Shown here: positions 1-17,410 of the stretch, in pieces
How positions within the stretch are numbered: the first letter of the stretch is position 1
How the letters are laid out: each line of letters starts with the position of its first letter
Source: a virus
Lineage: Duplodnaviria > Heunggongvirae > Uroviricota > Caudoviricetes
IMG/VR virus record: IMGVR_UViG_642979322_000011
Reading direction: 5' to 3' (one strand)
DNA length: 64,000 nt
The notes under the pieces: generated by a model
Told to the model about the DNA's origin: nothing
Database searches by the model: none
The model's input: the letters and a program-made list of their open reading frames with translations, nothing else
Made by a program: the position numbers and the translations under genes

Positions 1-177
1 ATGGAAAAAGACCTGAAAGAGTTGCGGGAATACCTATTACTTTCCCCCGTCTATTCTGAAATTAACGATTGTCTGGCTAGTCTCTCAATGGAAGACGTGA
101 CCAATGAAGAGTTCGCGGAACGTTTGGGAATTGCTCCTGATTGGATGGATGCTATAGATACTAGCCAACTTGCTTAA
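1..177 (+). CDS. 3' end of a gene entering from upstream, or a 58-codon small ORF; unknown function
   Basis: Open frame from position 1 to TAA at 175-177; followed by a GC hairpin (186-202) and a T-rich stretch. Confidence 0.25.
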   Translation: MEKDLKELREYLLLSPVYSEINDCLASLSMEDVTNEEFAERLGIAPDWMDAIDTSQLA

Positions 178-185
178 GAAAGGAT

Positions 186-212
186 GCGCCATTGCTGGGC
201 GCGTTTCTCATT
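186..212 (+). terminator. Possible intrinsic terminator
   Basis: GCGCC-7nt-GGCGC stem followed by a T-rich tract. Confidence 0.3.
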
Positions 213-363
213 TCTCCCGTAGCACTACGCATACCTTCTAATAAATTTCACCATCAAAATCAGTAGATTGATAAAATGTCACTCAAATCTGTCATAAGTA
301 TCACAATTTTTAAACCTAATTGAAATATAATGTTATTAGATATTATCTAATGGAGGTAGTTTA

Positions 364-1776
364 ATGTCTTATGCGTTGATTGATAATGCTTCGTTAACAG
401 CAGTCGAAAGAACACTGGGTGATATTCTTGTTAAGAATCCAGATACTATTAACGGAGATTTAGTCGCTTTTGAAAATCTTATTCAAGCGATACTTTTTTA
501 CGATACCCTGATCTGTGTAGATAATTATAAAAAAGAATATAGAGATAAACGCATTGCTAAATTTGACTTTATTAAATTTGTATCTGAAAGTGATTTTCAA
601 CTCAGTGAACTTGATCAGTTAGCACAAGTTGAATCTCGGCAAATTACTTCCGAAATTAGAGGTGGGGAGTTTGTTGACGATGATTTTAGGCAACTTGTAG
701 AGATGCTTAAGCTGAATATGATTTGCACATGGGATCTTCGGTCTAGCGTGTATTACTTAACAATGAAAATGCTTGGTCAGCCCGGTACTCCTGAATATGC
801 GAAATATAGTGAACTAAGTGCATCGATTTTTAATGAATTATCAGATGCTTCTGATACGAAAGGGTACTGGTCAACCGATGTGAAGCTAGTGAGTTCATCT
901 GGACATGAATATACTGAGCGTGAATTTGAACTAGAAAGGGAAAAATCTACTCGCGGTAAAGGAGGTATGACTCGTTCACTTGAAATGTTTATCGCATCGC
1001 TAAATTGGTTGGCATATAAATCTATTTATTACAGCGTCATTGCTAAGCATTTTAAAGCAGACTCATTTATTCATCCAATAAGGCATGCATATCAATTGCA
1101 TTGGATGAAAAAAACAGGTGCTTTTGGTCATGATTATACTGCAAGGTTGGTGCAATCGTTGTCTGATAAAATCAGTACTGCAAGATCTGAAATTGTAGAT
1201 CATGGACGCACATCTACTATTTCATTAGATTTACCAATATTTTCTGCATGGCTAGCAAACGAAACAGGAAATGTCTCTCAAGTTATCAATTCAGCTTTAG
1301 AGCTTAGAACACATGATCATTTTCGTACGTGTCGAGATGTAATCCGAGAGATTCATGTGACCTACGATGAATCGGGGATAAGTGCAGGAAATAAAAAAGT
1401 AACAAAATTACTAAGTGATTTAGATAAAATATCTGGAGATATTAAACGAAGCTACGGTGTTCCATCAAATCAAGGTATTCAAGGCAGTTTTTTGATAAAA
1501 TGTATAAATTCATTGACAGGACTCGTGGGTATTCCAGGTTTGCCTGATAAAGAGTTTGCACTGAGCACTCCTGAATTTATGAAGTCTAAACAACATAAAG
1601 CATTTTCTACCGTTTTCAAGGATGTTACTAACGAACTAACAAGCATTGAACGTTTAGGTGGGCTTCGGGATAAATTAGCGTCGAACTTTACTATTGATGA
1701 TTCTTATTATACCGAGCCAAAAACAGAGGATCCGAGATTCCGTTACGTAAGTAGTAATTGGAAGCAGCCAATGTAG
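364..1776 (+). CDS. Hypothetical protein, AT-rich orphan gene (470 aa)
   Basis: Long ORF with GGAGG RBS 8 nt upstream of ATG and TATAAT-like -10 at ~328; very low GC versus surroundings; no family recognised. Confidence 0.6.
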   Translation: MSYALIDNASLTAVERTLGDILVKNPDTINGDLVAFENLIQAILFYDTLICVDNYKKEYRDKRIAKFDFIKFVSESDFQLSELDQLAQVESRQITSEIRGGEFVDDDFRQLVEMLKLNMICTWDLRSSVYYLTMKMLGQPGTPEYAKYSELSASIFNELSDASDTKGYWSTDVKLVSSSGHEYTEREFELEREKSTRGKGGMTRSLEMFIASLNWLAYKSIYYSVIAKHFKADSFIHPIRHAYQLHWMKKTGAFGHDYTARLVQSLSDKISTARSEIVDHGRTSTISLDLPIFSAWLANETGNVSQVINSALELRTHDHFRTCRDVIREIHVTYDESGISAGNKKVTKLLSDLDKISGDIKRSYGVPSNQGIQGSFLIKCINSLTGLVGIPGLPDKEFALSTPEFMKSKQHKAFSTVFKDVTNELTSIERLGGLRDKLASNFTIDDSYYTEPKTEDPRFRYVSSNWKQPM

Positions 1777-2040
1777 ATATAGTTAAATGTATAATTATAA
1801 GTAATAACAATTTACAGACATTATTGAATTAAAAATAATTGCGTTAGGGTATAATATCTAACGCAATTAGATTGAAAAGTTAATTAAATAGTTAGTCAGA
1901 GCTAACTTCTTGTATTGTTAGTTACACTGCCTAACCTACAGACAAAAAGCCCCTCAGAATTGTGCTTACGCGCTCAAATTTCACTGCTGGGGATTTTTAC
2001 GTACATTCAACCCAAAAAGTGACCAAAAAAGTTCTTACAG

Positions 2041-2150
2041 AGTTGACGTTACGTTGACGTTGTTTTCTGAAAATGATCCCTTGGTGACTTATTTTATGTA
2101 TTTGATTTTACGTTTTTTCTTTAATGTTTTATCACTTTAAACTAACGTCA
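2041..2150. repeat. TTGACGTT direct repeats with an inverted copy about 90 bp downstream; iteron- or operator-like
   Basis: agTTGACGTTacgTTGACGTTg at 2041-2062 and AACGTCAA at 2143-2150 in AT-rich non-coding DNA. Confidence 0.3.
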
Positions 2151-2446
2151 ACTTATCCTTATAGAGCGATTAATTTCTATAAGTACTTTTTCTCAAAATT
2201 TGATTTTTACGGATGGAAGTCCATCAAAGAAACGTCATTTTTTTCTAAGACTTTGATCTTTCGTTAACGGTGTTAGTGGGGACTTCGGTCGTCGAGCGCG
2301 ATGCGCTTCTGACCGTTTCAATGGATAGGTTCGCCTTCTTGCGCCTCTCGCGGCGTTTGCCGCGCTCCGCGCTTTTGGCGGTTTGGCAGGCATATCTCTC
2401 TTATTATTGGTCGTTTTTTGCACCGCCTTGTCACGATCTGTCACTA

Positions 2447-3142
2447 CTAGTAGTAATGGTCATAACCTCCGCTTTCTCTTTTGGCTCTGGATGCTCTCAC
2501 TCGTGCTCTTCTTAACATCCTTAACAGTGGGTGGGTTTGTACTTTGTTCGAGTTTATTATCTGTGAGGATAGTAATTCCCTGCGCTCTGTCTCTGCCTCT
2601 TTGGTGACCGCTATCACTGATAAATCCCAATCGTGTTTGCTAATTAACGGTGCTTGGAACGGGGTGATTGGTGATCGATTTATGTCTTGTCGTTTCAATG
2701 TACGCTGTATCTGTCGCTTAGCTTTGTAGTTGTCTTTCCTTGATGCCTGAACGGCTTTTAGTATGCGTCTTACAGCATGAAAGCCAGTGATAGAAAGTGT
2801 TTCTTTTTTTATCTCATGCCGCGCCCAGCCATTCGAATAACCCCAAACGTTGGCATCTGACCAATCATATAGGCTCTTGCTCGCCTCTCTATTAAAGTCA
2901 TTTAACTTAGTTTCGGGCTTTGCCATGTAATCAATCTGTTTACCTATACACTTTGTAGGCTCTGAATATTGCTGACCTTTCAAATCTAGATCCCACTGGG
3001 GAGGAACATTTGATGGGATTGCATTGTTTGCCAGTGTTACCCATTTGCTGACAATTTTGCCAGCTTGCCCATTAATGCTTCTTTCGTTCACCATGATTAT
3101 TGCGTGTACATGCGGCTCTGACTGGTGTTGAGCCCACTCCAT
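2447..3142 (-). pseudogene. Relaxase-like fragment (MobA/MOBQ-type HUH motif), 5'-truncated
   Basis: EPHVHAIIMVNERS resembles the NPHCHLMISER HUH motif of RSF1010 MobA; N-terminal catalytic Tyr region absent; abuts a tail-fibre fragment on the opposite strand. Confidence 0.4.
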
Positions 3143-3694
3143 GACGTAAACCCACTGATTGCCTTGAATGAAAGCGATATTGCATCGCTTGATACCAGAG
3201 TTCAGTCGCTGGAATCGCAGGTTTCAGACCATGAAACGCGCATTAATGCTCTGGAGTATGCCACTACGCGCAAGAAGTCAGAGGTTGTTTACTCTGGCGT
3301 ATCAGTAACCATCCCGACAGCGCCGACCAACCTTGTTAGCCTGCTGAAAACGCTTACGCCGTCATCCGGGACGTTGGCACCATTCTTCGACACCGTTAAC
3401 AACAAGATGGTTGTGTTCAACGAGAACAAAACCTTGTTCTTCAAGCTGTCGATTGTCGGGACGTGGCCCAGCGGAACCGCCAACAGGTCAATGCAGCTAA
3501 CATTCTCCGGTTCTGTTCCTGACACGCTAGTAAGCAGTCGCAACTCGGCAACAACAACCGACAACATCCTGTTAGCTACGTTCTTCAGCGTGGATAAAGA
3601 CGGCTTTCTTGCCACAAATGGCAGCACGTTAACCATTCAGTCGAATGGCGCGGCGTTTACTGCCACAACCATCAAAATCATTGCGGAGCAGTGA
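3125..3694 (+). pseudogene. Phage tail fibre C-terminal fragment
   Basis: Coiled-coil then Ser/Thr/Asn-rich beta-type C-terminus typical of tail fibre tips; no N-terminal domain; stop overlaps next ATG (TGATG). Confidence 0.45.
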
Positions 3695-4161
3695 TGGAAA
3701 TAAAGCTCATCGATAACCCGGTGAAACTTGCAGAATTCCTTAACAACCCGGTAAACACGGGGAATATCGTAGACAGTGGAGATAAATACTACATCAAGCC
3801 TGATGCGGTATATCTCGGCATCTACGAAGGATTAGTGCTGGCTGGAGTTCATGAAGTGCGTAACTTCTGGCATAGCGTTGTTGAATGCCATGCGGTGTAT
3901 GACCCCGGATTCCGTGGCGAATATGCACTACAAGGGCATCGATTATTCTGCAAATGGCTTCTCGAAAACTCACCATTCCTTAACAGCATCACCATGGTTC
4001 CTGACACCACCAAATACGGACGGGCAATTATCCGTTTGCTTGGCGCTACCCGTGTTGGTCACCTTGATGATGCGTACATGAGTAACGGAAAACCGGTAGG
4101 AATCACCCTCTATCAATTACCTCGTTCGAAATATGAGGAGCTATTAAATGTTAGTACTTAG
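3694..4161 (+). CDS. Hypothetical phage protein
   Basis: ATG with GGAG RBS, translationally coupled to upstream ORF. Confidence 0.45.
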   Translation: MEIKLIDNPVKLAEFLNNPVNTGNIVDSGDKYYIKPDAVYLGIYEGLVLAGVHEVRNFWHSVVECHAVYDPGFRGEYALQGHRLFCKWLLENSPFLNSITMVPDTTKYGRAIIRLLGATRVGHLDDAYMSNGKPVGITLYQLPRSKYEELLNVST

Positions 4162-4828
4162 CGAAAGCTTCAAGAATAAATTGCTTCCCATGAATGGGTA
4201 TATGAAAGGCGGCAGCGACTCCGGATCTAAAGCCCAGGCACGCGCAACTGAAAAGGGCATCGAACTGCAGCGTGAAATGTGGCAGACGAACATGCAAAAC
4301 CTTGCACCGTTCACGCCACTCGCTCAGCAGTACGTATCACAGTTGCAGAATCTTTCCTCTCTTCAGGGGCAAGGTCAGGCGCTTAACCAGTATTACAACT
4401 CTCAGCAGTATAAAGACCTTGCAGGGCAGGCGCGCTATCAGAGTCTGGCAGCAGCAGAGGCAACGGGTGGATTAGGCTCTACAGCAACAGGAAACCAGTT
4501 AGCAGCAATCGCACCTACACTCGGTCAAAACTGGCTGTCAGGTCAGATGAACAACTACAACAATCTGGCAAATATCGGCCTTGGTGCTCTTACAGGTCAG
4601 GCAAACGCCGGACAGAACTACGCTAACAATGTCAGCCAATTGTATCAACAGCAGGCGGCAGCATCGGCAGCAAATGCGAATAAGCCTTCAGGCCTACAGA
4701 GTTTTGCTACAGGTGCCATTGGTGGGGCCGCATCAGGTGCAATGATTGGTAGTGCAGTTCCTGTTATTGGGACTGGTATTGGTGCTCTTGCTGGCGGTGT
4801 TATCGGTGGTCTTGGATCATTGTTTTAA
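4148..4828 (+). CDS. Phage internal virion (ejection)-like protein with Gly-rich C-terminus
   Basis: GAGGAG RBS; Q/N-rich then GxGxG C-terminus ending GGLGSLF, paralogous to 58584-58835 (ends GIAGSLF) in the Stx2 prophage. Confidence 0.5.
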   Translation: MLVLSESFKNKLLPMNGYMKGGSDSGSKAQARATEKGIELQREMWQTNMQNLAPFTPLAQQYVSQLQNLSSLQGQGQALNQYYNSQQYKDLAGQARYQSLAAAEATGGLGSTATGNQLAAIAPTLGQNWLSGQMNNYNNLANIGLGALTGQANAGQNYANNVSQLYQQQAAASAANANKPSGLQSFATGAIGGAASGAMIGSAVPVIGTGIGALAGGVIGGLGSLF

Positions 4829-4837
4829 GGTGGGAAT

Positions 4838-5500
4838 ATGGCTACTTGGCAACAAGGAATCAACTCAGGCGGTTTTCTTGCTGGTATCGGTGGGCAAAAC
4901 TCAAATGCGCCAAAGGCAAGTGATGTAAGTGAGGCGTTGGCCTATATTCGCCAGAACAACGAAATGGAGCGTTCAGGTCGCAATAACATCGGCCTTCAGG
5001 CGTTGCAGGGACTTGGTAGTGTCGCTCAAACATCTCAAGCCGCAAAGCAACAGGAAGCGGATGCTGCATTCCAAAAAGAATATGCGGCAGCCATCCAGTC
5101 CGGCGATCGACAGCAGGTTCGAGATCTGATGACCAAATATCCTGGTCAATTAGAGAAGATTCAGTCTGGTATGAAGTGGGCAGACGAAGACCAGCGCAAT
5201 TCTATCGGCACCTTAGCGGCTGGCGCACGCCTTGCGGCCTCGTCTCCAGAAGCAATGCAATCATGGCTGCAAAACACGCCAAGGAACTGGCGCGCGTCGG
5301 TGTTGACCCTAACAACGTTGCTCAGATGTATCAGCAGAATCCTTCAGGGTTTGGTGAGTTGTTTATCACCTTGGGATGGCTGCTCTCGGTCCGATTGACT
5401 ACTTCAATGTTCAGGACAAGATGGCTGGTCGTGAGATTGACCGAGGCAGGCTGGCAGAGACAATCCGCAGCAATCAGGCCGGAGATTTTGAGTTTAAGTC
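4838..5500 (+). pseudogene. Internal virion protein-like gene broken by two frameshifts
   Basis: Protein-like sequence continues across three frames (track ORFs 4838, 5176, 5376). Confidence 0.4.
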
Positions 5501-5972
5501 AAAGCCGTCATATTTAGTTCTATCATTTGCTGAAATATCATCTGTAGTCTTTATCCTAATGTCTGTCTATATGGTGGCAAAAAGTCAAAATAGCAATGGA
5601 TTACAGTATGATGCGCTTTTTATACCATCAATGGCCTTTTCAATATTAGTGTTTTCGTTTAATGGTGGTATTATTTCAAAAATAATATCAAATAAAGTTA
5701 TGATACTTTTAGGTGATGCTTCTTTTTCATTTTACTTGGTCCATACTATAGTAATCAGTACATTGAGCAAGTTCTTTAATGTTTCTGGTCTTGGTGCTAT
5801 AAGTGTAATTAAATTTATAGTAATGGCTCTGTTTGCTTCATTATTTATATCAATAATGATGTATTTGTTTTTTGAAAAGCCAATAAACAATAAGCTAAGA
5901 AAATGGTGGAGTGGATTTAAGAATGATGTTTCAACCACTCGAGTTGAAAAAATAGAAGGCAATCAATTATAG
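5500..5972 (+). pseudogene. Acyltransferase-3 family (O-antigen acetylase-like) C-terminal fragment
   Basis: AT-rich membrane segment with [13 protein letters not shown] motif typical of OafA/Oac acyltransferase C-termini; no N-terminal part. Confidence 0.45.
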
Positions 5973-6145
5973 CAATTAAAGTATGATAAGCATTTATGAT
6001 TGGTTTTAATGAAATGCATATGTAGTTAACATATAATAATTGCATTTTGTTATTGTTGATGGTTTCTTGGTGTAAGAAATCCTGAGAAGTGAAAAGCTTT
6101 GCTATATGTGCAAGGCTTTTCTTTTTTAAAGAATCGTTGTAATAA

Positions 6146-7303
6146 CTACTCCACCTTCCCATCAAGCCAGTCCGCCCACCACTGCATCATTTCTCTGCGC
6201 TTATCGAGATACTGAGCATGGTTGTAAATCCCACGCACAGATCCGCCGTTGGCATGTGCTAGTTGCACTTCAATAGCGTCAGCAGGCCATTCGTGCTCGT
6301 TCATAATCGTGCTGAATTCATGCCTGAATCCGTGACCGCTTTCCAGACCTTCATAGCCGATTTGTTTGATCACAAGCAGTACAGCGTTCTCACAGATTGA
6401 CTTCTTCTTATCGTTGCGCCCGGCAAAAACAAACTCTGATACTGGTTTAGTGATGGAGCTTAGCGTAGTGAGAAGTTCAACAACCTGGTCCGACATCGGA
6501 ACCACATGAATCTTGCGTCCCTTCATCACACTGGCCTCGATGGTGATAATCCTGTTTTCAAAATCGACGTTCTTCCATTGCATGGAACGAAGCTCTTTCG
6601 TTCTTAGTGCTGTGTAGCGTAAAACTTTGGTCGCAATGAGAGATACGATACTTCCTGAAAATGTTGCAAGTGCTTTGTTGAATGCCGGGATCTGGTCGGC
6701 AGGTAAAAACGGGAAGTTCTTCTTGCGGTATCCCTTCATGGCTTCAGCAAGGTCAGGTGCCGGGTTATATTTAGCCCTTCCGGTGACAATAGCGTAACGG
6801 AAAACCTCGCCGCATCTTCTGCGTGCTTTGTTGGCTCGCTCCATTGCCCCGCGATCTTCAAATCTGCGGATTACTTCCAGCAGTTGCATCGGCTCAATAT
6901 CCTGAATTTCAAGGCCGCCGATGATAGGTAAAATGTCGTCATCAAACATTTTTGCAAGTTCAGTCGCATAGGCGGCTGACCAGACTTGCCTCTTATGCTC
7001 GTACCATTCCTTGTAAATCGCACTAAAGGAATTGTTGTTAGACGAAGCCTTTTTCGCCTTTACCGGATCGATGCCAACCGAGATGTCTTTCCTCGCAGTC
7101 CATGCTTTATCCCTTGCCTCTTGCAAAGTCATAAGCGGATATTTTCCGACGGTCAGGATTTTCTCCTTACCGTCAATCTTGTAGCGAAGCTGCCATACCT
7201 TTTTCCCTGATACAGGGACATAAAGGTACAGGCCATTACCATCGAGTAGGCGGTATGGTTTTTCTTTCGGCTTTGCTGCTTCAATCTGCTTAACGGTGAG
7301 CAT
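6146..7303 (-). CDS. intS: Tyrosine integrase, P4/IntS family
   Basis: 385-aa product from MLTVKQIEAAKPKEKPYRLLDGNG, matches recalled K-12 IntS N-terminus and length; immediately 3' of and co-directional with argW. Confidence 0.9.
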   Translation of the reverse strand: MLTVKQIEAAKPKEKPYRLLDGNGLYLYVPVSGKKVWQLRYKIDGKEKILTVGKYPLMTLQEARDKAWTARKDISVGIDPVKAKKASSNNNSFSAIYKEWYEHKRQVWSAAYATELAKMFDDDILPIIGGLEIQDIEPMQLLEVIRRFEDRGAMERANKARRRCGEVFRYAIVTGRAKYNPAPDLAEAMKGYRKKNFPFLPADQIPAFNKALATFSGSIVSLIATKVLRYTALRTKELRSMQWKNVDFENRIITIEASVMKGRKIHVVPMSDQVVELLTTLSSITKPVSEFVFAGRNDKKKSICENAVLLVIKQIGYEGLESGHGFRHEFSTIMNEHEWPADAIEVQLAHANGGSVRGIYNHAQYLDKRREMMQWWADWLDGKVE

Positions 7304-7464
7304 GGGTAAAAATCCGGTGGGTAAAATTATTTTATCCACTTTTTACCCGTCATGGCGTGCGGCTGTCAACGATCTGACGCGAACCATGACGAACTCTGAA
7401 TCTACGGAAGGCTTGATATTCAGGGGATTTTGCGGACTGGTACGGATGGAGGCGAACTGATAAA

Positions 7465-7540
7465 TGGTGTCCCCTGCAGGAATCGAACCTGCAATTAGCC
7501 CTTAGGAGGGGCTCGTTATATCCATTTAACTAAGAGGACG
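7465..7540 (-). tRNA. argW: tRNA-Arg (anticodon CCU)
   Basis: Reverse complement reads GTCCTCTTAGTTAAATGGATATAACGAGCCCCTCCTAAGGGCTAATTGCAGGTTCGATTCCTGCAGGGGACACCA; cloverleaf with CCT anticodon and encoded CCA. Confidence 0.9.
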
Positions 7541-7734
7541 TTGTTGCGTATTGATTTTGGTTGTTCACCATATGACTGATAATACCGTCTTTATGGTTTT
7601 AAAATCAAGGTGTAAGTTTGTTTTTGTTCATGGTTGATTATCTTCTTTTGCGTTGAAAAGTGTTTTGTTCACTTGCTAATGCGTACATATTGAGTACAGA
7701 ATACATTATAAACTTGTGTACAGGATATAAAGCA

Positions 7735-8904
7735 TTGGCACTGAGCGACACCAAACTACGAGGCCTCTACGGAAAACCCTACTCTGGCCCTGCTGAAATC
7801 ACCGATGGTGACGGGTTAAGTGTGCGGATTACTCCAGCAGGAACTATCACGTTTCAGTACCGTTATCGCTGGAATGGTAAGCCAGTACGTCTTACTGTCG
7901 GGCGCTATCCGTCTACTTCACTGAAGGACGCGCGTGTTATCGTCGGTGAGATGCGCGCATTGTACATGAAGGGAGTTAACCCTAAAAATTATTTTGCGCC
8001 CAGTGACGGCGAACTGACATTAAAAGAATGCCTGGATCAGTGGTGGGATAAGTATGTTACTGATCTGAAACCCAATACACAGACGCTTTACAGATCCGTC
8101 GTGTACAACACTATGTACACACAGTTTGAAGGCTCGCCAGTTGCCGGTATCCCTGTATCGGCTTGGGCTCGCTTTTTTGACAAGCAAGAAAGCCTCAACA
8201 AGAAAAAGGCTCGTGTTCTGTTGTTACAACTGCGTTCAGTTATTAACTGGTGTATCAGCCGCCAGTTAATCCCATCATGCGAATTACTCAAACTTAGTGT
8301 AAAGAATATTGGGAAGAAACCAGATGTGGGGAGTCGCGTACTTACCTATACGGAACTGGCAAAGATCTGGCTGGCACTGGAGAACTCAAAAGTGGTTACT
8401 TCCAACAAGCTGTTACATCAATTGCTATTGCTATGGGGGGCCAGGCTTTCTGAGCTACGTCTCGCTACAGCCAGTGAGTTCAACATGGAAGATCTGGTCT
8501 GGACAACCCCTAAAGAGCATTCAAAGATGGGTAATATTATCCGGCGTCCGATATTTACTCAGGTTGAGCCTTATATTGAGCGATTGCTTAATGCGGGTTT
8601 TGATGTGCTATTCCCCGGGCAGGAAATAGATAAACCTATTGATCGTTCGTCGGCTAATTTGTACATGAAAAAGTTAAGGGAGAAAATTGATATTCCTGAA
8701 TGGAGAACGCATGATTTTAGGCGTTCTCTGGTAACGAATTTATCTGGGGAAGGAATTATGCCCCACGTCACTGAAAAAATGCTGGGGCATGAACTTGGGG
8801 GAGTTATGGCCGTGTATAATAAACACGACTGGTTGTCGGAACAGAAAGATGCGTATGAGTTGTATGCTGATAAAATTTTCTGGCACGCTAAACAGCTCGG
8901 TTAA
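7735..8904 (+). CDS. Tyrosine integrase (phage integrase family with N-terminal arm-binding domain)
   Basis: Conserved N-terminus ALSDTKLRGL begins at a TTG (7735) with AGGA RBS; C-terminal catalytic region with HDFRRS; track ORF starts earlier at GTG. Confidence 0.85.
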   Translation: MALSDTKLRGLYGKPYSGPAEITDGDGLSVRITPAGTITFQYRYRWNGKPVRLTVGRYPSTSLKDARVIVGEMRALYMKGVNPKNYFAPSDGELTLKECLDQWWDKYVTDLKPNTQTLYRSVVYNTMYTQFEGSPVAGIPVSAWARFFDKQESLNKKKARVLLLQLRSVINWCISRQLIPSCELLKLSVKNIGKKPDVGSRVLTYTELAKIWLALENSKVVTSNKLLHQLLLLWGARLSELRLATASEFNMEDLVWTTPKEHSKMGNIIRRPIFTQVEPYIERLLNAGFDVLFPGQEIDKPIDRSSANLYMKKLREKIDIPEWRTHDFRRSLVTNLSGEGIMPHVTEKMLGHELGGVMAVYNKHDWLSEQKDAYELYADKIFWHAKQLG

Positions 8905-9070
8905 TTCCTCCGGCTTTAAGCCATTGTTCAACGGCCTGACGACTATATCGCGCCGGATGAGTAAGTACTGGATCAGGGAATCCGTGTTTTTTTCGCAAAT
9001 TATACAAAGCTGTGCGCCTTTTTTGTAACAACTCAGAAACTTCTTTTTCGGTCATTAAGTTGATTTCCAT
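8888..9070 (-). CDS. AlpA-family excisionase/transcriptional regulator
   Basis: 60-aa HTH protein convergent with integrase 3' end; MTEKEVSELLQ...YSRQAVEQWLK. Confidence 0.6.
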   Translation of the reverse strand: MEINLMTEKEVSELLQKRRTALYNLRKKHGFPDPVLTHPARYSRQAVEQWLKAGGINRAV

Positions 9071-9130
9071 AGTATGCTCTCCTTTTCTACATGTTTTTCA
9101 ACAGCATAATAAACCGCCCGAAGGCGGTTG

Positions 9131-9382
9131 TTAGTTGATTGATGTACGGCGCATTTTTCGAAGGCTGGCAATATGCTTTTCCTTCTCAATTTCCGCTTTA
9201 ATCATATGCAGTTCGTTGTGCTCTATTCGCTCAAATTCTTCATTAAATGCACCAATTGAAGTGGCTCTGGTTCTGCCGTCGAGCCTTCGGTAGATCACCT
9301 GAGTCAGAGTTACCTTGCATATTTCTACCGGATAGTTGTTGGCATCAACGAAAGACTGCCCGCGCTGGATCAGGACGAACAC
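9131..9382 (-). CDS. Hypothetical protein
   Basis: ORF with GTG start and AAGGA RBS; AT-rich. Confidence 0.35.
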   Translation of the reverse strand: MFVLIQRGQSFVDANNYPVEICKVTLTQVIYRRLDGRTRATSIGAFNEEFERIEHNELHMIKAEIEKEKHIASLRKMRRTSIN

Positions 9383-9750
9383 TGGTTGTATTCCTTGAGT
9401 GCCATATCATAAACACGGCATGCCGAGAGGTGTGTTGTAGTCAACGTCGTTCGTATCCTGAAAAGTCCATGTGTTGTGACGGTAACTTCCGGGGCTTTGA
9501 GTTTCACTGCATCAACGATATGCTGATGTTTGCGGCTTTCGAATATAGAGCTGGATATAACCACACTTGCTGTTAAACCGTAACTTTCAAATGTGATTTT
9601 CATGTCATTATCCTCGCAGTTAGCCGGGCAACAAAAATAAATAATGTTGTTCCTGCGAATAACAGGATACCGCCCGTCATTAGAGAAAGGAAAAACAATA
9701 TTAATGTACGCGGGGTGTTTCTCAAAATATTCTCTCTGTGATTCGCTCAC
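9370..9750 (-). CDS. Hypothetical protein
   Basis: ORF only; odd composition, may be mis-framed. Confidence 0.3.
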   Translation of the reverse strand: MSESQREYFEKHPAYINIVFPFSNDGRYPVIRRNNIIYFCCPANCEDNDMKITFESYGLTASVVISSSIFESRKHQHIVDAVKLKAPEVTVTTHGLFRIRTTLTTTHLSACRVYDMALKEYNQCSS

Positions 9751-10163
9751 TCTGACAATTCGTTGATCAAGTCACGGTATTTATTCAGTTCTTGCAACGC
9801 CTTACATGCACCCTCCCATCGTTTCTGTTTCCGCCCGGCGCGGCGCGCTTCTTTCCGTGATTTACGTAGCAGGTCGCCTATAATGTTGTGCTGCACTGGC
9901 TGCACTGGCTGCACTGGCTGCACTGGCTGCACTGGCTGCACTGGCTGCACTGGCTGCACTGGCTGCACTGAGGCGATATTTGGTTTTTTGTCCACTTCCC
10001 TTGCAACTGCCTGCCAGATGCCATTTTTTACAGTTACTACCCCCTGGTTTTTTAACTTCCATAGAGTGTCAATAACGTCATTCAAATCAATATTGAGACC
10101 TTTAGAAATACTTTCGGCTGATGCTTTTCCTAATTTGTTCAATTCTGTGAGCACTGCGTTCAT
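9747..10163 (-). CDS. Hypothetical phage protein with PVQ tandem repeat
   Basis: ORF encodes (VQP)x9 from a 9-bp DNA tandem repeat. Confidence 0.55.
   Translation of the reverse strand: MNAVLTELNKLGKASAESISKGLNIDLNDVIDTLWKLKNQGVVTVKNGIWQAVAREVDKKPNIASVQPVQPVQPVQPVQPVQPVQPVQPVQHNIIGDLLRKSRKEARRAGRKQKRWEGACKALQELNKYRDLINELSE
9891..9969. repeat. 9-bp tandem repeat CTGCACTGG, about 8.7 copies
   Basis: Perfect head-to-tail copies visible in sequence, in frame within CDS 9747-10163. Confidence 0.9.
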
Positions 10164-10198
10164 TTTTTTCTCCTGATATTTTAATGTCGGTGGGGCTG

Positions 10199-10411
10199 TT
10201 ATACGGTTGGTGAGGTGTCAGCTTCTTCTACCAGCTTTTCCAGTTCATCCAGCTTTCGGGAAAGAATTTCACCAAACAGATGAAGTTCTGCATCTGCTGT
10301 AATCGGGATTGGAACAAATCGTATTCCACTTCTGGCAAGTTGATTTGCGATTTCCAGACACTGCCTTAATTCAACTGGTGATGCCTTTGTCAACGTCGTT
10401 TTTTCGCTCAT
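10199..10411 (-). CDS. Small phage protein, paralogue of 17411-17602
   Basis: ASPVELRQCLEIANQLARSGIRFVPIPI vs ASPVELRTSIEMAHSLAQIGVRFVPIPV; start re-set to internal ATG (MSEKTTL). Confidence 0.5.
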   Translation of the reverse strand: MSEKTTLTKASPVELRQCLEIANQLARSGIRFVPIPITADAELHLFGEILSRKLDELEKLVEEADTSPTV

Positions 10412-10997
10412 TGGTTTTCTCCAGAAATTTAACAATACCCGGAACCATCTCAATGGATGGTGTGCCGCATTGGTTACCCCATACATCAAATCCATGCGAG
10501 GTGTGGCGGGCGAACAGTTCTATCCGGGGAACATCGCCAAGAAGTTGCACAAGTTTTTCTCGAGCCATATCCGGCTTGCGGGAGTGATCAAGGCGTGGTG
10601 CAGTGAATGACTGGATTATTCCGGCGTTAATGCGTTCGGGCAGATTTCCTTTCACTGCAAAAAGGCAGTCTTCGCTGTTAGCGCGAGTGGTGCTACCCAT
10701 ACCCATGACCAGCTTGTCGGTCTGTCTTTTCCCGCATTTGTTCCAGGTTAATCCTTTCATCGTCACCAGACGAAAGCCCCACGCTTCTACAACCTTCAAT
10801 GCTTCAAGTGGTTGTGTAGGCACCCACCACATAGCCAACAGGCAATTCTCGGCTGCCAGTTCCCATACCGGGAGGCGGCAGATATCCAGAAGACTCATGA
10901 CCGGATATTTAAAACTTGCACCGCGTTGACCATCGGTTGCTTTGTCGCGGAATGTCCAGGGGGGATCTGCGTAAATGAGGGTGTATTTTTTCGTCAT
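10371..10997 (-). CDS. Orphan N6-adenine DNA methyltransferase, MT-A70 family
   Basis: IYADPPW (DPPW catalytic motif) near N-terminus; ATG start confirmed. Confidence 0.75.
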   Translation of the reverse strand: MTKKYTLIYADPPWTFRDKATDGQRGASFKYPVMSLLDICRLPVWELAAENCLLAMWWVPTQPLEALKVVEAWGFRLVTMKGLTWNKCGKRQTDKLVMGMGSTTRANSEDCLFAVKGNLPERINAGIIQSFTAPRLDHSRKPDMAREKLVQLLGDVPRIELFARHTSHGFDVWGNQCGTPSIEMVPGIVKFLEKTNERKNDVDKGITS

Positions 10998-11425
10998 AGC
11001 GCGTTTTCAAACTCATCAATGTAAAGTCCTGCTTTAATCAGTCGGCGACGGCGTTCGGCCTTTTGCACGTATTCCTCGCGACAGTTTTTTGCTGCGTGTT
11101 CACGGCTTCTGCGACTGAATGGAGGAACGGCATTGCGTGAGCGAGGTGTGTCACGACGAGGATTTGATTCGAGGGAGAAAAAGCGATCAACGATTCCGGT
11201 GTCTGTGGTGAATGGTTCTGAAGCCTTTATTTTCACAACCTTACTGCCCTTTGTCAGGCCGCGAGCTACCTTGTTGAACTCGCAAAGTGAAACACCAAAT
11301 TTCTCTGCTATTTCACTGCCAGTAACAGGACGACCACGAGACTGAATCATCCAGGTGACGCGTTCTTTTAACCCACGGAAGGCACCGGGCCTTCCAGAAC
11401 GCCTGTAGAAAGCGATCTGTTTCAA
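10994..11425 (-). CDS. Hypothetical HTH protein
   Basis: TTG start with GGAGA RBS (alternative ATG at 11350); HTH-like VTGSEIAEKFGVS. Confidence 0.45.
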   Translation of the reverse strand: MKQIAFYRRSGRPGAFRGLKERVTWMIQSRGRPVTGSEIAEKFGVSLCEFNKVARGLTKGSKVVKIKASEPFTTDTGIVDRFFSLESNPRRDTPRSRNAVPPFSRRSREHAAKNCREEYVQKAERRRRLIKAGLYIDEFENAL

Positions 11426-11439
11426 ATTTTTGTCTCCAG

Positions 11440-11462
11440 ATATGAAAACCCCGACGGGATGT
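11440..11462 (-). terminator. Rho-independent terminator
   Basis: Minus strand CCCCGAC-5nt-GTCGGGG followed by TTTT, downstream of CDS 11481-12158. Confidence 0.5.
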
Positions 11463-11790
11463 CGGGGATGGTAGGGGAAGTTACAGGCTTAACGAGAAGC
11501 CTTTTCGGGAATTTCGATCTGACAGTCTTGAAATATCCTGTAGCGTGCGGCGCATTTCTTCCGTCAGATGTTTGAAGGCGTTAAATTCAGCGACAGCCGC
11601 ATCGACGTTATAGCCCTTGCTGTGTAGTTCGTTGAGGATACGCATGGTTGGGCTTGGCATGTCGAAGAGTACAGAAACGTCCAGGTTAAGAGTTTTTCGA
11701 TCAACATAGCTCATCATGGAGTAGGGGTGGTGCTCTGAAAACCACGATAGAGGGTAGTTGATAGATAGTGTTGATTCTGGAAGCTGAAGT
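11440..11790. repeat. Copy A of a ~350-bp intra-prophage repeat
   Basis: About 90% identical to 20235-20580 by eye; covers the 3' end of an antirepressor gene plus its terminator. Confidence 0.75.
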
Positions 11791-12158
11791 TGTTCTGGGA
11801 TTTTTTGACTGAAATAGCAGTCTTCCAGTTTTTCGAACACTTCCCACGCCCGATCGGTTTCGAGCATTTTTGCGTGACGGGCTGCGCCGCGTTCTGTCCA
11901 GAGGATGAGGGAGCGAACGTTACGGGCGATTTTCACAGAGTAGTTAAAAGCTACTCTGTGCTTGAACTCACGTAAAGTTTCACCTTCAAGTTTGAAGAAG
12001 TGTTTTTCCTCAATGAAACGACCTTTGTTTTCGTGGTGATTCTGGCGAATACGAATAGCTTCTGTGCCGTAAAGGTGCGCCAAAAGTTCGGTAGTGATAA
12101 CGGGGATCTGCTTGTAAGTAATCGTGGAGAGTGTTTCAACAGAAACTTGAGTTGTCAT
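11481..12158 (-). CDS. Antirepressor-like protein (ORF6N-type N-terminal domain, shared Rha-type C-terminal domain)
   Basis: N-terminus IPVITTELLAHLYGTEAIRIRQNHHENKGRFIEEKHFFKLEGETLREFK; C-terminal ~100 aa nearly identical to 20276-20923. Confidence 0.6.
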   Translation of the reverse strand: MTTQVSVETLSTITYKQIPVITTELLAHLYGTEAIRIRQNHHENKGRFIEEKHFFKLEGETLREFKHRVAFNYSVKIARNVRSLILWTERGAARHAKMLETDRAWEVFEKLEDCYFSQKIPEQLQLPESTLSINYPLSWFSEHHPYSMMSYVDRKTLNLDVSVLFDMPSPTMRILNELHSKGYNVDAAVAEFNAFKHLTEEMRRTLQDISRLSDRNSRKGFSLSL

Positions 12159-12481
12159 TATGACGCCCTCGAGTGGTTTCTAAACTATCACCACCGTTAG
12201 GTTCGAATCATCGGGTGGTGAGACGTACAGGGTTCGAACTACCGGGAAACCAACCGGCGAGCTTTTCAGCTCCCCTATACGCCCCACCATAATTCAGATG
12301 TGCGCGTGCATACGACAATAAAAAACACGCTCGCGGCGTGTCTCTGTCGCGGTTTCTATCCGGGGTTCGAATCCCGACGGTCAACTCGACCGTGCGAAGA
12401 ATATAATCCCGGATATGTGTTGTCGTCAACAAGTGGCGTGCTATCATCGAATAGTGTTCTATCCTACTCAGTGAGGTTTAA

Positions 12482-12740
12482 CATGCGTACAACCCAACAA
12501 TTCAGCATTACATTAACCAACGAAATGGCTGACATGGTGCGCGCCCGTGTGGCTTCCGGTGCATACGCTTCAGAAAGCGAAGTTATTCGTGAAGGGCTTC
12601 GTGCACTGAATGAACGCGACAAAGCAATGGAAGCGTGGTTAATACACTCAGCCGCGCCGCCACTCGACGCTATTCGTGAGAACCTAGGCAAAGGGCACTC
12701 CATTTCACAGGTTCGCTCTGAGATTCGCGCCCGGAAGTAA
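12482..12740 (+). CDS. ParD-family (RHH, COG3609-like) antitoxin homologue
   Basis: MADMVRARVASGAYASESEVIREGLRALNERDKAMEAWL matches the ParD pattern (GEYATASEIVREAVR...); GAGG RBS; no ParE/RelE-like ORF follows. Confidence 0.65.
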
Positions 12741-12826
12741 TCTGCATGGCATATGAAGTGCCACACTAACAAACTGCTCCAGGTATGGGAATAGTGTCAC
12801 TTGCAGCACCTATTAGAGATCCGATA

Positions 12827-13066
12827 ATGAACATCATAGCAAGGTTCTTTTATTTGATAATTTTCTGCATGGCAACATCAGGATGCACTACCACTACGAA
12901 AATAAATCGCGGAGATGAAAAGGAACAGTACATCATTGCCTGTGGTGCCGCTACACCATGGGGAGTATGCTATGATAAAGCCAATGCCCTATGTAAAAAT
13001 GGATATAAAGACATTTTAAAGGAACAGGGATTTAACAGGAAAGAATTAACCATTGAGTGTAAATAA
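12827..13066 (+). CDS. Small lipoprotein (79 aa), unknown function
   Basis: Signal peptide MNIIARFFYLIIFCMATSGC with lipobox TSG-C; four more Cys; AT-rich. Confidence 0.5.
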   Translation: MNIIARFFYLIIFCMATSGCTTTTKINRGDEKEQYIIACGAATPWGVCYDKANALCKNGYKDILKEQGFNRKELTIECK

Positions 13067-13155
13067 GGCCATCATTTGCAACGTTGAAAAAATTCGCCCG
13101 TGCTACAGGGAAAAAACTCCAGATCCGCTTCGTTTAACTACGAGGATTACCACTA

Positions 13156-13461
13156 ATGGCGATGTTTACCCCCCCTCATCCTGGAGAAATTATTGCTGAT
13201 ATTCTGGAAGATCAGAATATTGGAATCAGGGAACTGGCAAGAGCGCTTGATGTCGCGCCTTCCACTGTTCAGCGACTGGTTTCAGGTAATGCGACAATAT
13301 CTCCTGAAATGGCTGTTCGTCTCGCTGCTGTCCTGGGGGGAACTCCGTCTTCATGGATTCGTCTCCAGACGGCATGGAGCCTTGAAAAAGCGGAAAGAGA
13401 AGTTGACGTATCTCATCTCTCAACAAAATACCGCCCGGCAGAAATTTCGCCTCATGCTTAA
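13156..13461 (+). CDS. HigA-family antitoxin homologue (XRE-HTH)
   Basis: HPGEIIADILEDQNIGIRELARALDVAPSTVQRLVSGNATISPEMAVRLAAVLGGTPSSWIRLQTAWSLEKAE closely matches recalled E. coli HigA; GAGGA RBS; no HigB-like ORF upstream. Confidence 0.7.
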   Translation: MAMFTPPHPGEIIADILEDQNIGIRELARALDVAPSTVQRLVSGNATISPEMAVRLAAVLGGTPSSWIRLQTAWSLEKAEREVDVSHLSTKYRPAEISPHA

Positions 13462-13503
13462 CCACCGCGCCGTCATTCTGGCGGCGTCGGAGAGTGGAGG
13501 ATA

Positions 13504-14242
13504 TCAGGTTCCGAATTCTGCGTTGTTCTCCGCGTCCAGGATTTCTTCAATCTTCCGTACTCCCCGATTATTGTATCGGAAGCTTTCTACCTGCTTATCC
13601 GAATACGGGGATTTGTCGATGAACCATTTCCCGTATTGTTCGGTTTTGAGCATGTAGGTATTGGCAATGCGACCAACCTTGTTAGCGGATATTTTGAGTT
13701 TTGCTCCAACTTCTGACGCCGAATAGTAATGTTCATTAATCATCGGTAGCGGGATTACGTTAGCGCCTACAACGGGATTAACCAGGCTGGCGGCAACGAC
13801 TTGTTTAGCTTCAGGGGCAAGGTTGGGGAGGAAGCCGAAAAGGTCTTTCATTGTATCGACGGTCATTTTCAGCGCCCGTGCTTTACGGAATTCCTCAAGG
13901 CCGTTAGTCGAATGTTTCGAGGTGATTTTTTGTTGCAGTTGCTGTTGCATTGACTCCAGTTGATCGACCAGCGAACGACGGACGGATTTAGATTCACGAG
14001 CGGCAACCCGAAGCGCTTGTTTATAGGTCATCACAATAACAACCTGATCCGCACCGCCTTTTTTCTTATCCATGGGGGTTACGAAAATTTCGTAACCCCC
14101 CCCCATCAAGTTCATCTTTGATGCGTGCAATGAAGTCGTTGTTGCGTACTTCTTTTTCACCGCACAGTCTCCGCGCTTCATTCACCATTTTCAACAGAGC
14201 CTGGCTGTCGATAGTTCCATTTTTCATTACATTATTTTTCAT
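13504..14242 (-). pseudogene. Phage protein split by a frameshift in a C9/G9 homopolymer
   Basis: N-terminal frame from ATG 14242 (MKNNVMKNGTIDSQALLKMVNEARRLCGEK...) stops shortly after the run at 14096-14104; C-terminal frame is track ORF 13504-14181. Confidence 0.5.
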
Positions 14243-14335
14243 CGTTTTAACCTCTCAAGCTCGCCGTAGCGAGTTCAGATAAAAGAAATCCCCGCGAGTG
14301 CGAGGATTCTTATTCACCTTTGACCAAGTTGCAGG

Positions 14336-14959
14336 TTAGCCACGGTTAACCTCCTGCGGCGGTTCTGGTAGCGGCATCCAGTGAGTTGCTTGCTCAATAC
14401 CATTACCCGGCTTAATCGTTGCATCTCCGCGCCGAAAGGTGCTTCCGGTATAGCGTGCGGAGCATATTAGCGGTTCAACCAGAGAGCTATCGAAATTCAC
14501 CGAAATAAGCACGTTCTGGCCCTTTTCAGGCATTCGATCACTACAGCTTATCCAACTATCCGGAGTTACCGGAGAGTTACCAGCCTCATAAGCGGATTTC
14601 ATCCAGTGCGTAAGCGTTTCGATGCTTACACATCCGCAATCAACGTCTATTTTTTCTTTTTGTTCTGACAACCATTCCTGGAATGACAGCTTGGCAGTCT
14701 GGCTTGCTGGATCAATTCGTGGCAGGCCGATATATAGTGGTACATTTCCCGGCTCCATCGAATTGTCGGGACAAATAAACGTGTTACAACCATATTTAAC
14801 GAGCTCAATTCCCACTGTGTCGATAGTGGCGAATGGTTCAGTGGTCAATGCAGTCAACGCAATTTCATAAGCACGGCGCTCAATATTATCTCGCACGTCC
14901 AGGCTGCCGATTCGCTCTTTGATTTCTTTAATCATTTCTTTGTCGGTGAACGTTGTCAT
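14336..14959 (-). CDS. Hypothetical phage protein with C-terminal WMPLPEPP motif
   Basis: ORF; C-terminus HWMPLPEPP recurs in lambdoid hypothetical proteins. Confidence 0.5.
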   Translation of the reverse strand: MTTFTDKEMIKEIKERIGSLDVRDNIERRAYEIALTALTTEPFATIDTVGIELVKYGCNTFICPDNSMEPGNVPLYIGLPRIDPASQTAKLSFQEWLSEQKEKIDVDCGCVSIETLTHWMKSAYEAGNSPVTPDSWISCSDRMPEKGQNVLISVNFDSSLVEPLICSARYTGSTFRRGDATIKPGNGIEQATHWMPLPEPPQEVNRG

Positions 14960-14962
14960 GTG

Positions 14963-15250
14963 TTAGTCCTTATCCACTTCAACGCCATCTTTCAGCGTGA
15001 TGCCGTGCCAATCATCAGCCCAACTGGTTAACCCAGGCGCATCAATGCTAGGCATATAGACGCTTGCAGTGTGGTAGCCCTTATCGTTATCAATGCTGGC
15101 AACGTGCTCGCCGTTGTATGCGCTCAGCGTGTCTAGGACACTATAAAACTTTCCTCCGGCTGCCCTGAAATCCTTTACAGCCTTCACAAGACGATTCCAC
15201 GCTTTTTCCTGTTCTGGCGTCAGGTCGATTAATTCCTGCAAAGTTGCCAT
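14963..15250 (-). CDS. Hypothetical phage protein
   Basis: ATG at 15250 with AAGGA RBS (MATLQELIDL...). Confidence 0.45.
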   Translation of the reverse strand: MATLQELIDLTPEQEKAWNRLVKAVKDFRAAGGKFYSVLDTLSAYNGEHVASIDNDKGYHTASVYMPSIDAPGLTSWADDWHGITLKDGVEVDKD

Positions 15251-15471
15251 TTCAGTTTTCCTTATATGGGTTAATTTTATTGTGCAGTGTGTTGAACGAC
15301 GCCCATACCACGTCGTTATACAACTCAATAACTAGCTCAATTATTTTCCCGATTGCCCAGACAAAAATTAGCGGGGATATCGGTGTCATCAACACGATAA
15401 ACAGAATGAGAAACAAAAATTCTGTCGCTCTACTTTTTCGCGGATATTCTTTTCTGAATAATGTAGGCACA

Positions 15472-15687
15472 TCACTCTCCTTTGTTGCTCCTCAAAATTT
15501 TATGCCCTGGCGCAAAAGCACGCGTTTTGTCTTTGCTTATTCGCCAGCCATCCTTGCGCGCCTCTTTTGCACAGCCAGCCCATGACGTACCGATATACTC
15601 ACCGAAGTCTGGCGACTTATATTTGCCATCTGTACACTGGAGGCAATCACAATAGAGATGCATGGTGTAACTTGCAGCAATAGCCAT
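15472..15687 (-). CDS. Hypothetical Cys-rich small protein
   Basis: ATG at 15687 with AGGAG RBS; CDCLQC motif. Confidence 0.4.
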   Translation of the reverse strand: MAIAASYTMHLYCDCLQCTDGKYKSPDFGEYIGTSWAGCAKEARKDGWRISKDKTRAFAPGHKILRSNKGE

Positions 15688-15688
15688 A

Positions 15689-15877
15689 TCACTCTCCTTT
15701 AGTGCGCAAGTGGTTTTTCCAGCGGTTTTGCTCCGCGCTGGGCTTTTTGCAAAAACCACAATCCATCATCCCGTAATATTTCATCAACCCCATCCGTCGG
15801 TTGCTGAGTCTCACCCACTGCCAGACGCCAGGAGCGTTTCTACGAACTAACAGAATCTTTGCTTTACGGTTTTTCAT
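15689..15877 (-). CDS. Hypothetical small protein
   Basis: ATG at 15877 with AGGAGA RBS; the longer track ORF overlaps the upstream gene. Confidence 0.35.
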   Translation of the reverse strand: MKNRKAKILLVRRNAPGVWQWVRLSNRRMGLMKYYGMMDCGFCKKPSAEQNRWKNHLRTKGE

Positions 15878-16028
15878 CGTTTTGCTCTCCTGCATCTCTT
15901 TGCTGCTCGTCGTGCCGCTGCAATACCGGTATGGCGGCGCTTTGGTGTCGGGATGATGTTCTTTGCAATTAGCGCAGAAGCCCAAAAACGAGTCGGATAC
16001 GGTAACAAGCCGATACATGCCACACGCA

Positions 16029-16802
16029 TTACTCACCTCTTTTGATGCGAATGCCAGCGGCGCGCTCGGCTTCACTTTGTTCCCAAAACCACTTGTGAAG
16101 CGCCATAAGCTTTTCGTCAATCGGTGCATATTTGCGATTAAAGTAGGCCTGAGCATCTTTCTCAGATTCGTCCGGTAATTCGCCAGGGCCAAACAGTGTG
16201 TTATAAATCCATGCTAGTCCGCTCTTAGCGTCGCCAGTTGCCTGCCATTCGATAATGGCAGCCTGCATGACCAGAATGTTTTTCCCGATTAATAGGTCCA
16301 GTTCTTTGTACCGGTTGCGGATGTATGCATTCTCGCTTTGTAATTTTGCGTTGCGCTTTTCTGAGGCTTCAAGTAACGCCTGCTTATCGCGTAGAGCTTC
16401 TTCCAGTTCAGCAACATGGCATTCACTATCAATAAGGTTGTTCTCTGCTGCTTCAAGCTCAACACGCAGCTTCCCAACCGTAAGCGCAATCTCCTCGTTC
16501 TCCTGGTCGCGGCGTTTGATGTATTGCTGGTTTCTTTCCTGTTCATCCAGCAGTGCCAGCACGGTAGCCGGGTTAGCCTCTGCTATGAATTCAGCGTTTG
16601 CATAAGCCTGATCATCTGATTCAATCAGGCAGTTAACATGACATTCCGCAATCACGCCACCGGGTTCTCCTTTCCATTTTTGGCAAACAAAAACTCCTGT
16701 TAAATTGCCGTGCTGGTTAACAGATGTATGCCCTACGATGTAGCTTCCTTTAGTTGCTTTCTCTGCCTTTTCACGCAGTGCCTGATAATTAATTTCGCTC
16801 AC
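16029..16802 (-). CDS. Ead/Ea22-like coiled-coil protein
   Basis: Coiled-coil acidic protein in lambda ea22 position. Confidence 0.5.
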   Translation of the reverse strand: MSEINYQALREKAEKATKGSYIVGHTSVNQHGNLTGVFVCQKWKGEPGGVIAECHVNCLIESDDQAYANAEFIAEANPATVLALLDEQERNQQYIKRRDQENEEIALTVGKLRVELEAAENNLIDSECHVAELEEALRDKQALLEASEKRNAKLQSENAYIRNRYKELDLLIGKNILVMQAAIIEWQATGDAKSGLAWIYNTLFGPGELPDESEKDAQAYFNRKYAPIDEKLMALHKWFWEQSEAERAAGIRIKRGE

Positions 16803-17020: not shown

Positions 17021-17073
17021 CTTTCATTAATCCCTGAATTGTTGGTTAATACGCTTGAGGGTGAATGCGAATA

Positions 17074-17096
17074 ATAAAAAAGGAGCCTGTAGCTCC
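17074..17096 (-). terminator. Rho-independent terminator
   Basis: Minus strand GGAGC-5nt-GCTCC followed by TTTTTTATT. Confidence 0.5.
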
Positions 17097-17118
17097 CTGA
17101 TGATTTTGCTTTTCATGT

Positions 17119-17334: not shown

Positions 17335-17410
17335 TGAACAAGTCCCATGTCGGCAAGCATAAGCACACAGAATATGAAGCCTGCTGCCAGAAAAATGCAT
17401 TCTGTTGTTG

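Follow-up and report, generated by a model that had tools for sequence, protein, structure and literature searches.

The stretch of DNA analysed here (64 000 nt, IMG/VR record IMGVR_UViG_642979322_000011, in the following called the window) raises the question why the integrase of an Stx2 prophage lies beyond the 5′ end of a tRNA gene and is transcribed away from it. Such a geometry is unusual, as the preliminary description of the locus had pointed out: divergent (OD) and integrase-before-tRNA (SIT) arrangements jointly account for <8% of 1273 integrase–tRNA pairs (PMC2951348).

Two different integrases flank an intact argW gene

The window represents E. coli O157:H7 and is 99.99% identical to NZ_CP089270.1 over the compared stretches 1–30000 and 44693–64000. 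The main elements of the locus are as follows:

6146–7303, minus strand: intS (named intC in EDL933), identified via Pfam, RefSeq and 95–96% DNA identity to the K-12 intS region
7465–7539, minus strand: argW, an intact tRNA-Arg(CCU) gene, identified via ARAGORN and its cloverleaf fold
7540–64000: body of the Stx2a prophage, whose right end is located ~4.7 kb past the window
7735–8904, plus strand: Φ24B-type tyrosine integrase of 389 aa with a TTG start, identified via identity to Φ24B and Pfam

ARAGORN found one tRNA-Arg(CCT) in the window, argW, which folds into a normal cloverleaf and whose sequence is 100% identical across 5426 of 5426 E. coli genomes, in agreement with the earlier view that the gene is intact. 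The tRNA, ORF and domain calls also agree that it is flanked by two different integrases. The minus-strand ORF at 6146–7339 carries the Pfam domains Phage_integrase, Phage_int_M and Arm-DNA-bind_3, and the plus-strand ORF at 7660–8904 carries Phage_integrase and Arm-DNA-bind_3 (PF00589, PF13356). RefSeq names the first ‘prophage integrase IntS’ (6146–7303) and the second a tyrosine recombinase with a TTG start at 7735; the two proteins share 29% identity over 93 residues, solely in the N-terminal arm-binding region. As first described, IntS is located on the 3′ side of argW and transcribed in the same direction, which is the standard same-orientation, tRNA-before-integrase arrangement (PMC2951348). 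The second integrase is positioned beyond the 5′ end of argW and is divergent from it, and the prophage on this right-hand side contains stx2A (31011–31970) and stx2B (31982–32251).

The attachment core is the 5′ end of argW

The preliminary description had offered two explanations for this geometry, namely an attachment core upstream of or overlapping the 5′ region of the tRNA, or a rearranged junction. We found that the core overlaps the 5′ end of argW and that nothing is rearranged:

7516–7539: Φ24B-type att core TTATATCCATTTAACTAAGAGGAC at the int-proximal junction, attL in GenBank HQ424691

This core is the reverse complement of argW nucleotides 1–24 and comprises the 5′ acceptor arm (nucleotides 1–7), nucleotides 8–9 and the D arm minus its last base. 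The window matches 5426 of 5426 complete E. coli genomes up to exactly position 7539, which is tRNA nucleotide 1, and most of the matches end there. Within the window the tRNA and the 24-bp core were each found only once. The window ends inside the last phage gene, and the far junction was taken from the 99.99%-identical genome NZ_CP089270.1 and from other records. Window positions 44693–64000 correspond to positions 1–19307 of the far-end stretch of this near-identical genome (L002) at 99.995% identity. In NZ_CP089270.1 the last phage gene is followed by 220 bp and then by yfdC, and the identical 24 bp TTATATCCATTTAACTAAGAGGAC are located inside these 220 bp (L002 23995–24018), ~4.7 kb past the end of the window. 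Identity at the far end stops on the inner side with one mismatch, at tRNA nucleotide 25; the far junction consists of the core, native upstream sequence and yfdC. The search for a direct repeat at the far prophage end, suggested earlier, thus yielded nucleotides 1–24 of argW itself and not the repeat unrelated to argW that had been named as the refuting outcome. In the present isolate the right end is accordingly expected to read LPD38-family gene, TTATATCCATTTAACTAAGAGGAC, AATGCGGCATGAG..., yfdC in that order, as judged from the near-identical genome and the other records.

Both recombination partners can be rebuilt from the two junctions. When the host flanks are rejoined (the window up to 7539 and the sequence past the far core), they give the empty argW–yfdC locus of strain 19213, only a few SNPs apart; this is the comparison with an empty locus that had been proposed. 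When the phage arm, the core and the window from 7540 onwards are rejoined, they give 680 bp that are contiguous at 95–99% identity in the free phages vB_EcoS_P27, Stx2-converting phage 86, phi345 and Lyz12581Vzw. Existing GenBank annotations of att sites agree with this assignment: the attL of HQ424691 spans the 5′ end of the tRNA, and LC616031 marks a 24-bp duplication. We conclude with high confidence that a Φ24B-type Stx2a prophage has integrated site-specifically into the 5′ end of argW and that the locus represents its int-proximal junction. Nucleotides 25–75 of the present argW gene are host-derived; nucleotides 1–24, the shared core, may come from host or phage.

Integrase, excisionase and the int-proximal attP arm

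Next to the core and the integrase gene the following elements were assigned:

7540–7734, plus strand: int-proximal attP arm, located within the published minimal attP and containing a block kept in 21 relatives
7673–7702, plus strand: pInt, the likely own promoter of int (TTGCTA, 18-nt spacer, CAGAAT)
8888–9070, minus strand: excisionase (Xis/RDF), encoded convergently to int with an overlap at the int 3′ end

The integrase is identical to Φ24B Int (ADN68388) in 383 of 389 residues (98%), and the 60-aa Xis ORF, which contains an HTH_17 domain, matches Φ24B Xis in 59 of 60 (98%). The longest ORF, starting at 7660, overstates the integrase, and the TTG at 7735 is the supported start. The latter is preferred because 5′-RACE on the 98%-identical Φ24B gene located the transcript start 46 bp downstream of the old start codon, which favours initiation at the TTG (PMC3064807). 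If the old codon is the GTG at 7660, this transcript start would map near position 7706. The hexamers of pInt were assigned in the present analysis from the sequence. An alignment of relatives revealed a conserved block near int, GTTCACTTGCCAnTGCGTACA..GAGTACAGAAT...TGTGTACAGG, that contains GTACA repeats and would fit the published pInt. The motif TTGTTCA is present in three direct copies at 7561, 7624 and 7665, and GTACA is found at 7683, 7694 and 7718 in the int-proximal arm and at five sites over both attP arms. Both motifs are enriched compared to shuffled sequences and are candidates for arm-type Int sites.

A putative phage-borne promoter faces argW

An element that integrates into the 5′ end of a gene needs its own promoter, because the native promoter stays at the far end of the element. 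Upstream of argW the phage DNA contains a candidate:

7579–7608, minus strand: promoter-like site with a −35 element TTGATT (7608–7603), an 18-nt spacer and a −10 element TATTAT (7584–7579)

From a consensus scan a transcript start near 7572 on the minus strand and a leader of ~32 nt are predicted. The 111 bp upstream of the tRNA have diverged in 21 elements of this type, in which the sole invariant columns are TTG and G.TA...T. These are 18 nt apart and always found on the tRNA strand, with the −10 element ending 39 nt before tRNA nucleotide 1. The native argW promoter scored below the threshold of the promoter scan. A terminator scan of both junctions found none; a hairpin past the last phage gene, considered as an ‘insulating terminator’ against the displaced native promoter, was rejected as it has no T-run.

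Judging from this conservation, the phage promoter likely drives argW in lysogens. The −35/−10 element could alternatively serve the regulation of int or transcription across attP, with the tRNA being silent or read through. In favor of such a role, the promoter is part of the attP arm, where it is interspersed with candidate Int-binding repeats and arranged back-to-back with pInt. Furthermore, argW may be dispensable because tRNA-Arg(UCU) can likewise read AGG. However, the TTG and TAnnnT positions are the only ones kept in an otherwise diverged region, they keep strand and distance relative to tRNA nucleotide 1, and the native promoter is displaced by ~61 kb. We regard a role unrelated to argW as unlikely; it is the only live alternative to our reading of the locus.

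The Φ24B attachment site probably corresponds to the argW gene

The recombination system of phage Φ24B has been studied experimentally, and Int-dependent attP × attB recombination has been demonstrated (PMC3064807, PMC7581858). Int alone is enough for integration and excision needs Xis (PMC3064807). The primary site of the phage was described as ‘250 bp upstream of intS’ (PMC5247750), and a central crossover region of 24 bp and a minimal attB of 62–93 bp were reported (PMC7581858). The minimal attP was given as 350–427 bp, a range whose reading is limited by the plasmid-table entry for attP350, which disagrees with the primer positions in the same paper (PMC7581858); an assignment of arm-type sites from these constructs was dropped over this conflict. 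In STEC genomics the site is called argW, and the 24-bp att is in routine use (bioRxiv 2024.03.06.583675).

The published Φ24B attP and attB primers map perfectly to the locus studied here, and ‘Int F’ represents the first 19 bases of the core. According to the primer mapping, the published 49-bp ‘B arm’ of attB is tRNA nucleotides 25–73 and ‘B′’ is the native upstream side. The smallest working attB (49 + 24 + 20 bp) would then be essentially the whole tRNA gene plus 20 bp, and the non-working attB (18 + 24 + 20 bp) would have been missing tRNA nucleotides 43–73. The words tRNA and argW are absent from the two Φ24B recombination papers (PMC7581858 and PMC3064807).

Twenty integrase relatives share the divergent tRNA

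A scan with one genome per species yielded 33 relatives of the integrase. Of the relatives with ≥67% identity and sufficient upstream DNA, 19 of 19 show a divergent tRNA-Arg(CCT) located 171–204 bp upstream of int; together with one truncated match of 56% identity, which likewise has a divergent tRNA-Arg(CCT), this gives 20 relatives in total. They are spread over the Enterobacterales, belong to Erwinia, Enterobacter, Pantoea, Brenneria, Xenorhabdus, Providencia, Tatumella, Salmonella, Rosenbergiella, Morganella, Proteus, Limnobaculum and Rouxiella, and include an unclassified Enterobacteriaceae isolate and a gammaproteobacterial metagenome-assembled genome. Within E. coli, 209 of 5426 complete genomes contain the integrase, and the junction of IntS flank, tRNA and phage is present in at least 151 complete genomes. 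For distant relatives lacking the tRNA, an Rfam scan gave no RNA target; its hits, all located far from int, were limited to phage C4 and isrK RNAs.

These data bear on two further explanations. The adjacency to argW could be coincidental if the phage used a site in the intergenic region ahead of the tRNA and the repeat had nothing to do with the gene; the Φ24B papers, which locate the site only relative to intS, would be compatible with that. However, it is highly improbable given that the repeat is precisely the first 24 nucleotides of the tRNA, that most E. coli homology breaks off at nucleotide 1, that the published minimal attB requires the 49 bp mapped above to nucleotides 25–73, and that the target tRNA is constant in 20 species with differing flanks. 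A secondary rearrangement (inversion, deletion or inter-prophage recombination) that moved the Stx2 integrase to the 5′ end of the tRNA might be suspected in view of the degraded left element and the tendency of prophage-rich O157 genomes to rearrange, but its probability is close to nil since attB and attP both rebuild cleanly and the same junction recurs in E. coli and the same layout in 20 other species. Both coincidence and rearrangement are excluded.

The IntS element is a stranded remnant

The left element uses a different part of the same gene:

7464–7479, minus strand: KplE1/IntS-type att core CTGCAGGGGACACCAT, 16 nt, at the argW 3′ end, one copy

The 16-nt core, whose sequence was taken from the work on IntS/KplE1 (PMC2951348), consists of the last 15 tRNA nucleotides and the first base after the gene. 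No second copy was found in the window (≤2 mismatches) or in the 22 kb left of the tRNA in the near-identical genome (≤3 mismatches). Past intS, annotation shows P22-like ejection and needle genes, some of which are pseudogenes. The left, KplE1/CPS-53-like element is a stranded remnant because the second 16-nt core that would be needed for excision is absent; together with the pseudogenes, this bears out the initial assignment of IntS to a degraded element. A distance of 36 bp separates the 24-bp core from the 16-nt core in the 75-nt gene. As they are separate, both elements coexist and the tRNA is still intact.

Model and implications

We propose the following course of events. The attP of the phage carries a 24-bp copy of tRNA nucleotides 1–24, and Int exchanges strands within this identity between attP and argW; the overlap region possibly lies in the D loop. 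After integration argW keeps its host body (nucleotides 25–75) and phage DNA precedes the gene. A 24-nt 5′ stub and, with it, the native promoter of argW end up ~61 kb away beside yfdC. In view of this displacement, argW is probably driven by a promoter of the phage (TTGATT, 18-nt spacer, TATTAT, 7608–7579). With respect to its own attP the integrase is arranged in an ordinary P4-like manner, with the core ~195 bp upstream, int transcribed away from it and a promoter of its own; the reversed feature is the orientation of the target gene. IntS elements use their separate 16-nt core at the 3′ end, which allows an element at each end of argW without conflict.

Among STEC, O157:H7 included, argW is one of the main docking sites for high-toxin Stx2a phages. 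The location of the site in the 5′ third of the tRNA explains how the prophage and the IntS remnant share one tRNA, and also why IntS is wrongly attributed to the Stx phage by prophage finders; it appears in the list of Stx-phage integrases of one survey (PMC8136144). Lysogeny would rewire the promoter of a rare-codon tRNA. Moreover, two names refer to one site: what Φ24B biochemistry calls ‘upstream of intS’ is the ‘argW’ of STEC genomics. Beyond the linking of these names the biology is established.

Comparison with known systems

The IntS of KplE1/CPS-53 (also HK620 and Kapi1) has argW as a common target gene with the Stx2 phage, and in both systems the int promoter lies inside the att arm and transcription runs away from the core (PMC2951348). 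They differ in the segment used: KplE1 IntS has a 16-nt core at the tRNA 3′ end and is co-directional (STI), whereas the Stx2 phage uses nucleotides 1–24 and is divergent (OD).

With lambda the system shares a heterobivalent tyrosine recombinase, arm- and core-type sites and the control of directionality via Xis. In lambda, transcription of int from pL/pI proceeds toward att and is controlled by CI, attB comprises 21 bp and IHF is required. In contrast, Φ24B int is inverted relative to lambda and constitutive, with a TTG start and its own promoter that is active in lysogens (PMC3064807), IHF was reported to be unnecessary and the minimal attB is 62–93 bp (PMC7581858).

Integration into the 5′ part of a tRNA gene is a recognized minority class, considerably less frequent than 3′ integration (PMC6563490). 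The prophage described here shows the trait of this class, as the identity segment is located in the 5′ part of the tRNA and a 5′ stub with the native promoter is found at the far end. A 2002 paper reportedly describes such elements as crossing over within the 5′ portion of the tRNA gene and having to supply the 5′ fragment and the upstream signals.

The integrase of E. coli prophages at the sbcB site, a site reported for Stx2c and Stx1a phages, is 56% identical, and its gene likewise points away from the 5′ end of its target. Identity to the host breaks off shortly after the beginning of the sbcB coding region, and GTAC-type repeats are found upstream of int. The target is protein-coding in this case, and what the phage replaces is not the 5′ segment of a tRNA but the start codon and about ten codons at the beginning of the gene. 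It is conceivable, and we suggest it tentatively, that the Φ24B/sbcB clade is specialized for the 5′ ends of genes, with a replacement promoter in every case, and that Int recognizes the whole tRNA as attB. If so, every argW lysogen would use a phage promoter situated among Int-binding sites to transcribe its AGG-decoding tRNA-Arg(CCU), and a whole-tRNA attB would account for the puzzling length and asymmetry of the attB described in 2020.

The closest systems are Φ24B (vB_EcoP_24B) and the ‘argW’ Stx2a phages PA8, VT2phi_272 and their relatives, which have the same core, int orientation, TTG start and intS-adjacent site, with 98% identity for both Int and Xis. There is no material difference apart from a few amino-acid changes and an IS629-like insertion elsewhere in the prophage. 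For MG1655::φPA8, a K-12 lysogen with the phage at argW, conventional RNA-seq has been published (PMC6580645). A literature search combining argW with 5′-end wording found nothing, and three points are not stated in the literature searched, namely that the core and the long attB of Φ24B represent the argW gene itself, that conservation of the promoter extends over several genera, and that the divergent 5′-end geometry is shared by the 56%-identical integrase of the sbcB site. The site, core and integrase are already known, experimentally tested and annotated in GenBank, and our additions usefully clarify a known system and do not describe one of a new kind.

A relative of the integrase at sbcB

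A relative of the Stx2 prophage integrase, 56% identical to it, is found at the sbcB gene of E. coli, where it lies at the 5′ end of the gene and is divergent from it (2420-2720 in the sbcB-locus sequences L027 / L041). When this locus is compared with the empty site, identity stops ∼30 nt into the 5′ end of the sbcB coding sequence. From the prophage the gene receives its upstream region, a replacement start codon and roughly ten codons. GTGTACC / GCGTACC repeats are present upstream of the sbcB-site integrase gene. This geometry suggests that 5′-end targeting is a trait of the entire integrase clade.

Accessory genes of the Stx2 prophage

Accessory genes lie in these stretches of the prophage:

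21680-24100 (approximate, transferred from 36683-39102 of L001, a stretch of NZ_CP089270.1), early-region restriction and antitoxin genes, by annotation
30669-30920, three phage tRNA genes (CAT anticodon, Arg-TCG and Arg-TCT), directly upstream of stx2A

In the early region, the repressor gene has as neighbours genes for a restriction endonuclease of the BsuBI/PstI family and a methylase of the Eco57I type. ParD- and HigA-type antitoxin genes are also present, neither with a toxin partner in the annotation. The CAT-anticodon tRNA is assigned to Met by ARAGORN but to Ile in the RefSeq annotation. Together with argW, which is probably rewired, Arg-TCG and Arg-TCT bring the arginine decoders touched by the prophage to three.

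Differences from a near-identical genome

One insertion sequence was identified within the lysis/regulator region of the prophage:

37756-39065, IS3-family insertion sequence (1310 bp)

Its inverted repeats of 25 nt begin with TGAACCGCCCCGGG, and its ORFs of 108 and 296 aa carry the domains HTH_Tnp_1 and rve; the element looks like IS629. It is missing from NZ_CP089270.1, which is otherwise 99.99% identical. Downstream of stx2B, positions 32474-32613 do not align to that genome (∼140 bp in the window versus ∼150 bp in NZ_CP089270.1), with flanks 99.9-100% identical.

The element adjoining argW

Beyond intS, the integrase gene 3′ of argW, lies a phage remnant:

1-6145 and the region further left (8130-20975 of L001), P22-like remnant left of intS, by annotation

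Its genes encode needle, DUF2824 and ejection proteins and include pseudogenes. It is bordered by a sucrose (csc) cluster that takes the place of part of dsdX; the argW-dsdCXA region is known as a variable island, according to the title of a study that PMC7545054 cites. A survey of Stx phage genomes (PMC8136144) gives 'integrase IntS' for some of its clusters as a second integrase of Stx phages. The layout of the window suggests that IntS was counted there because prophage boundaries had been drawn past argW into the neighbouring remnant.
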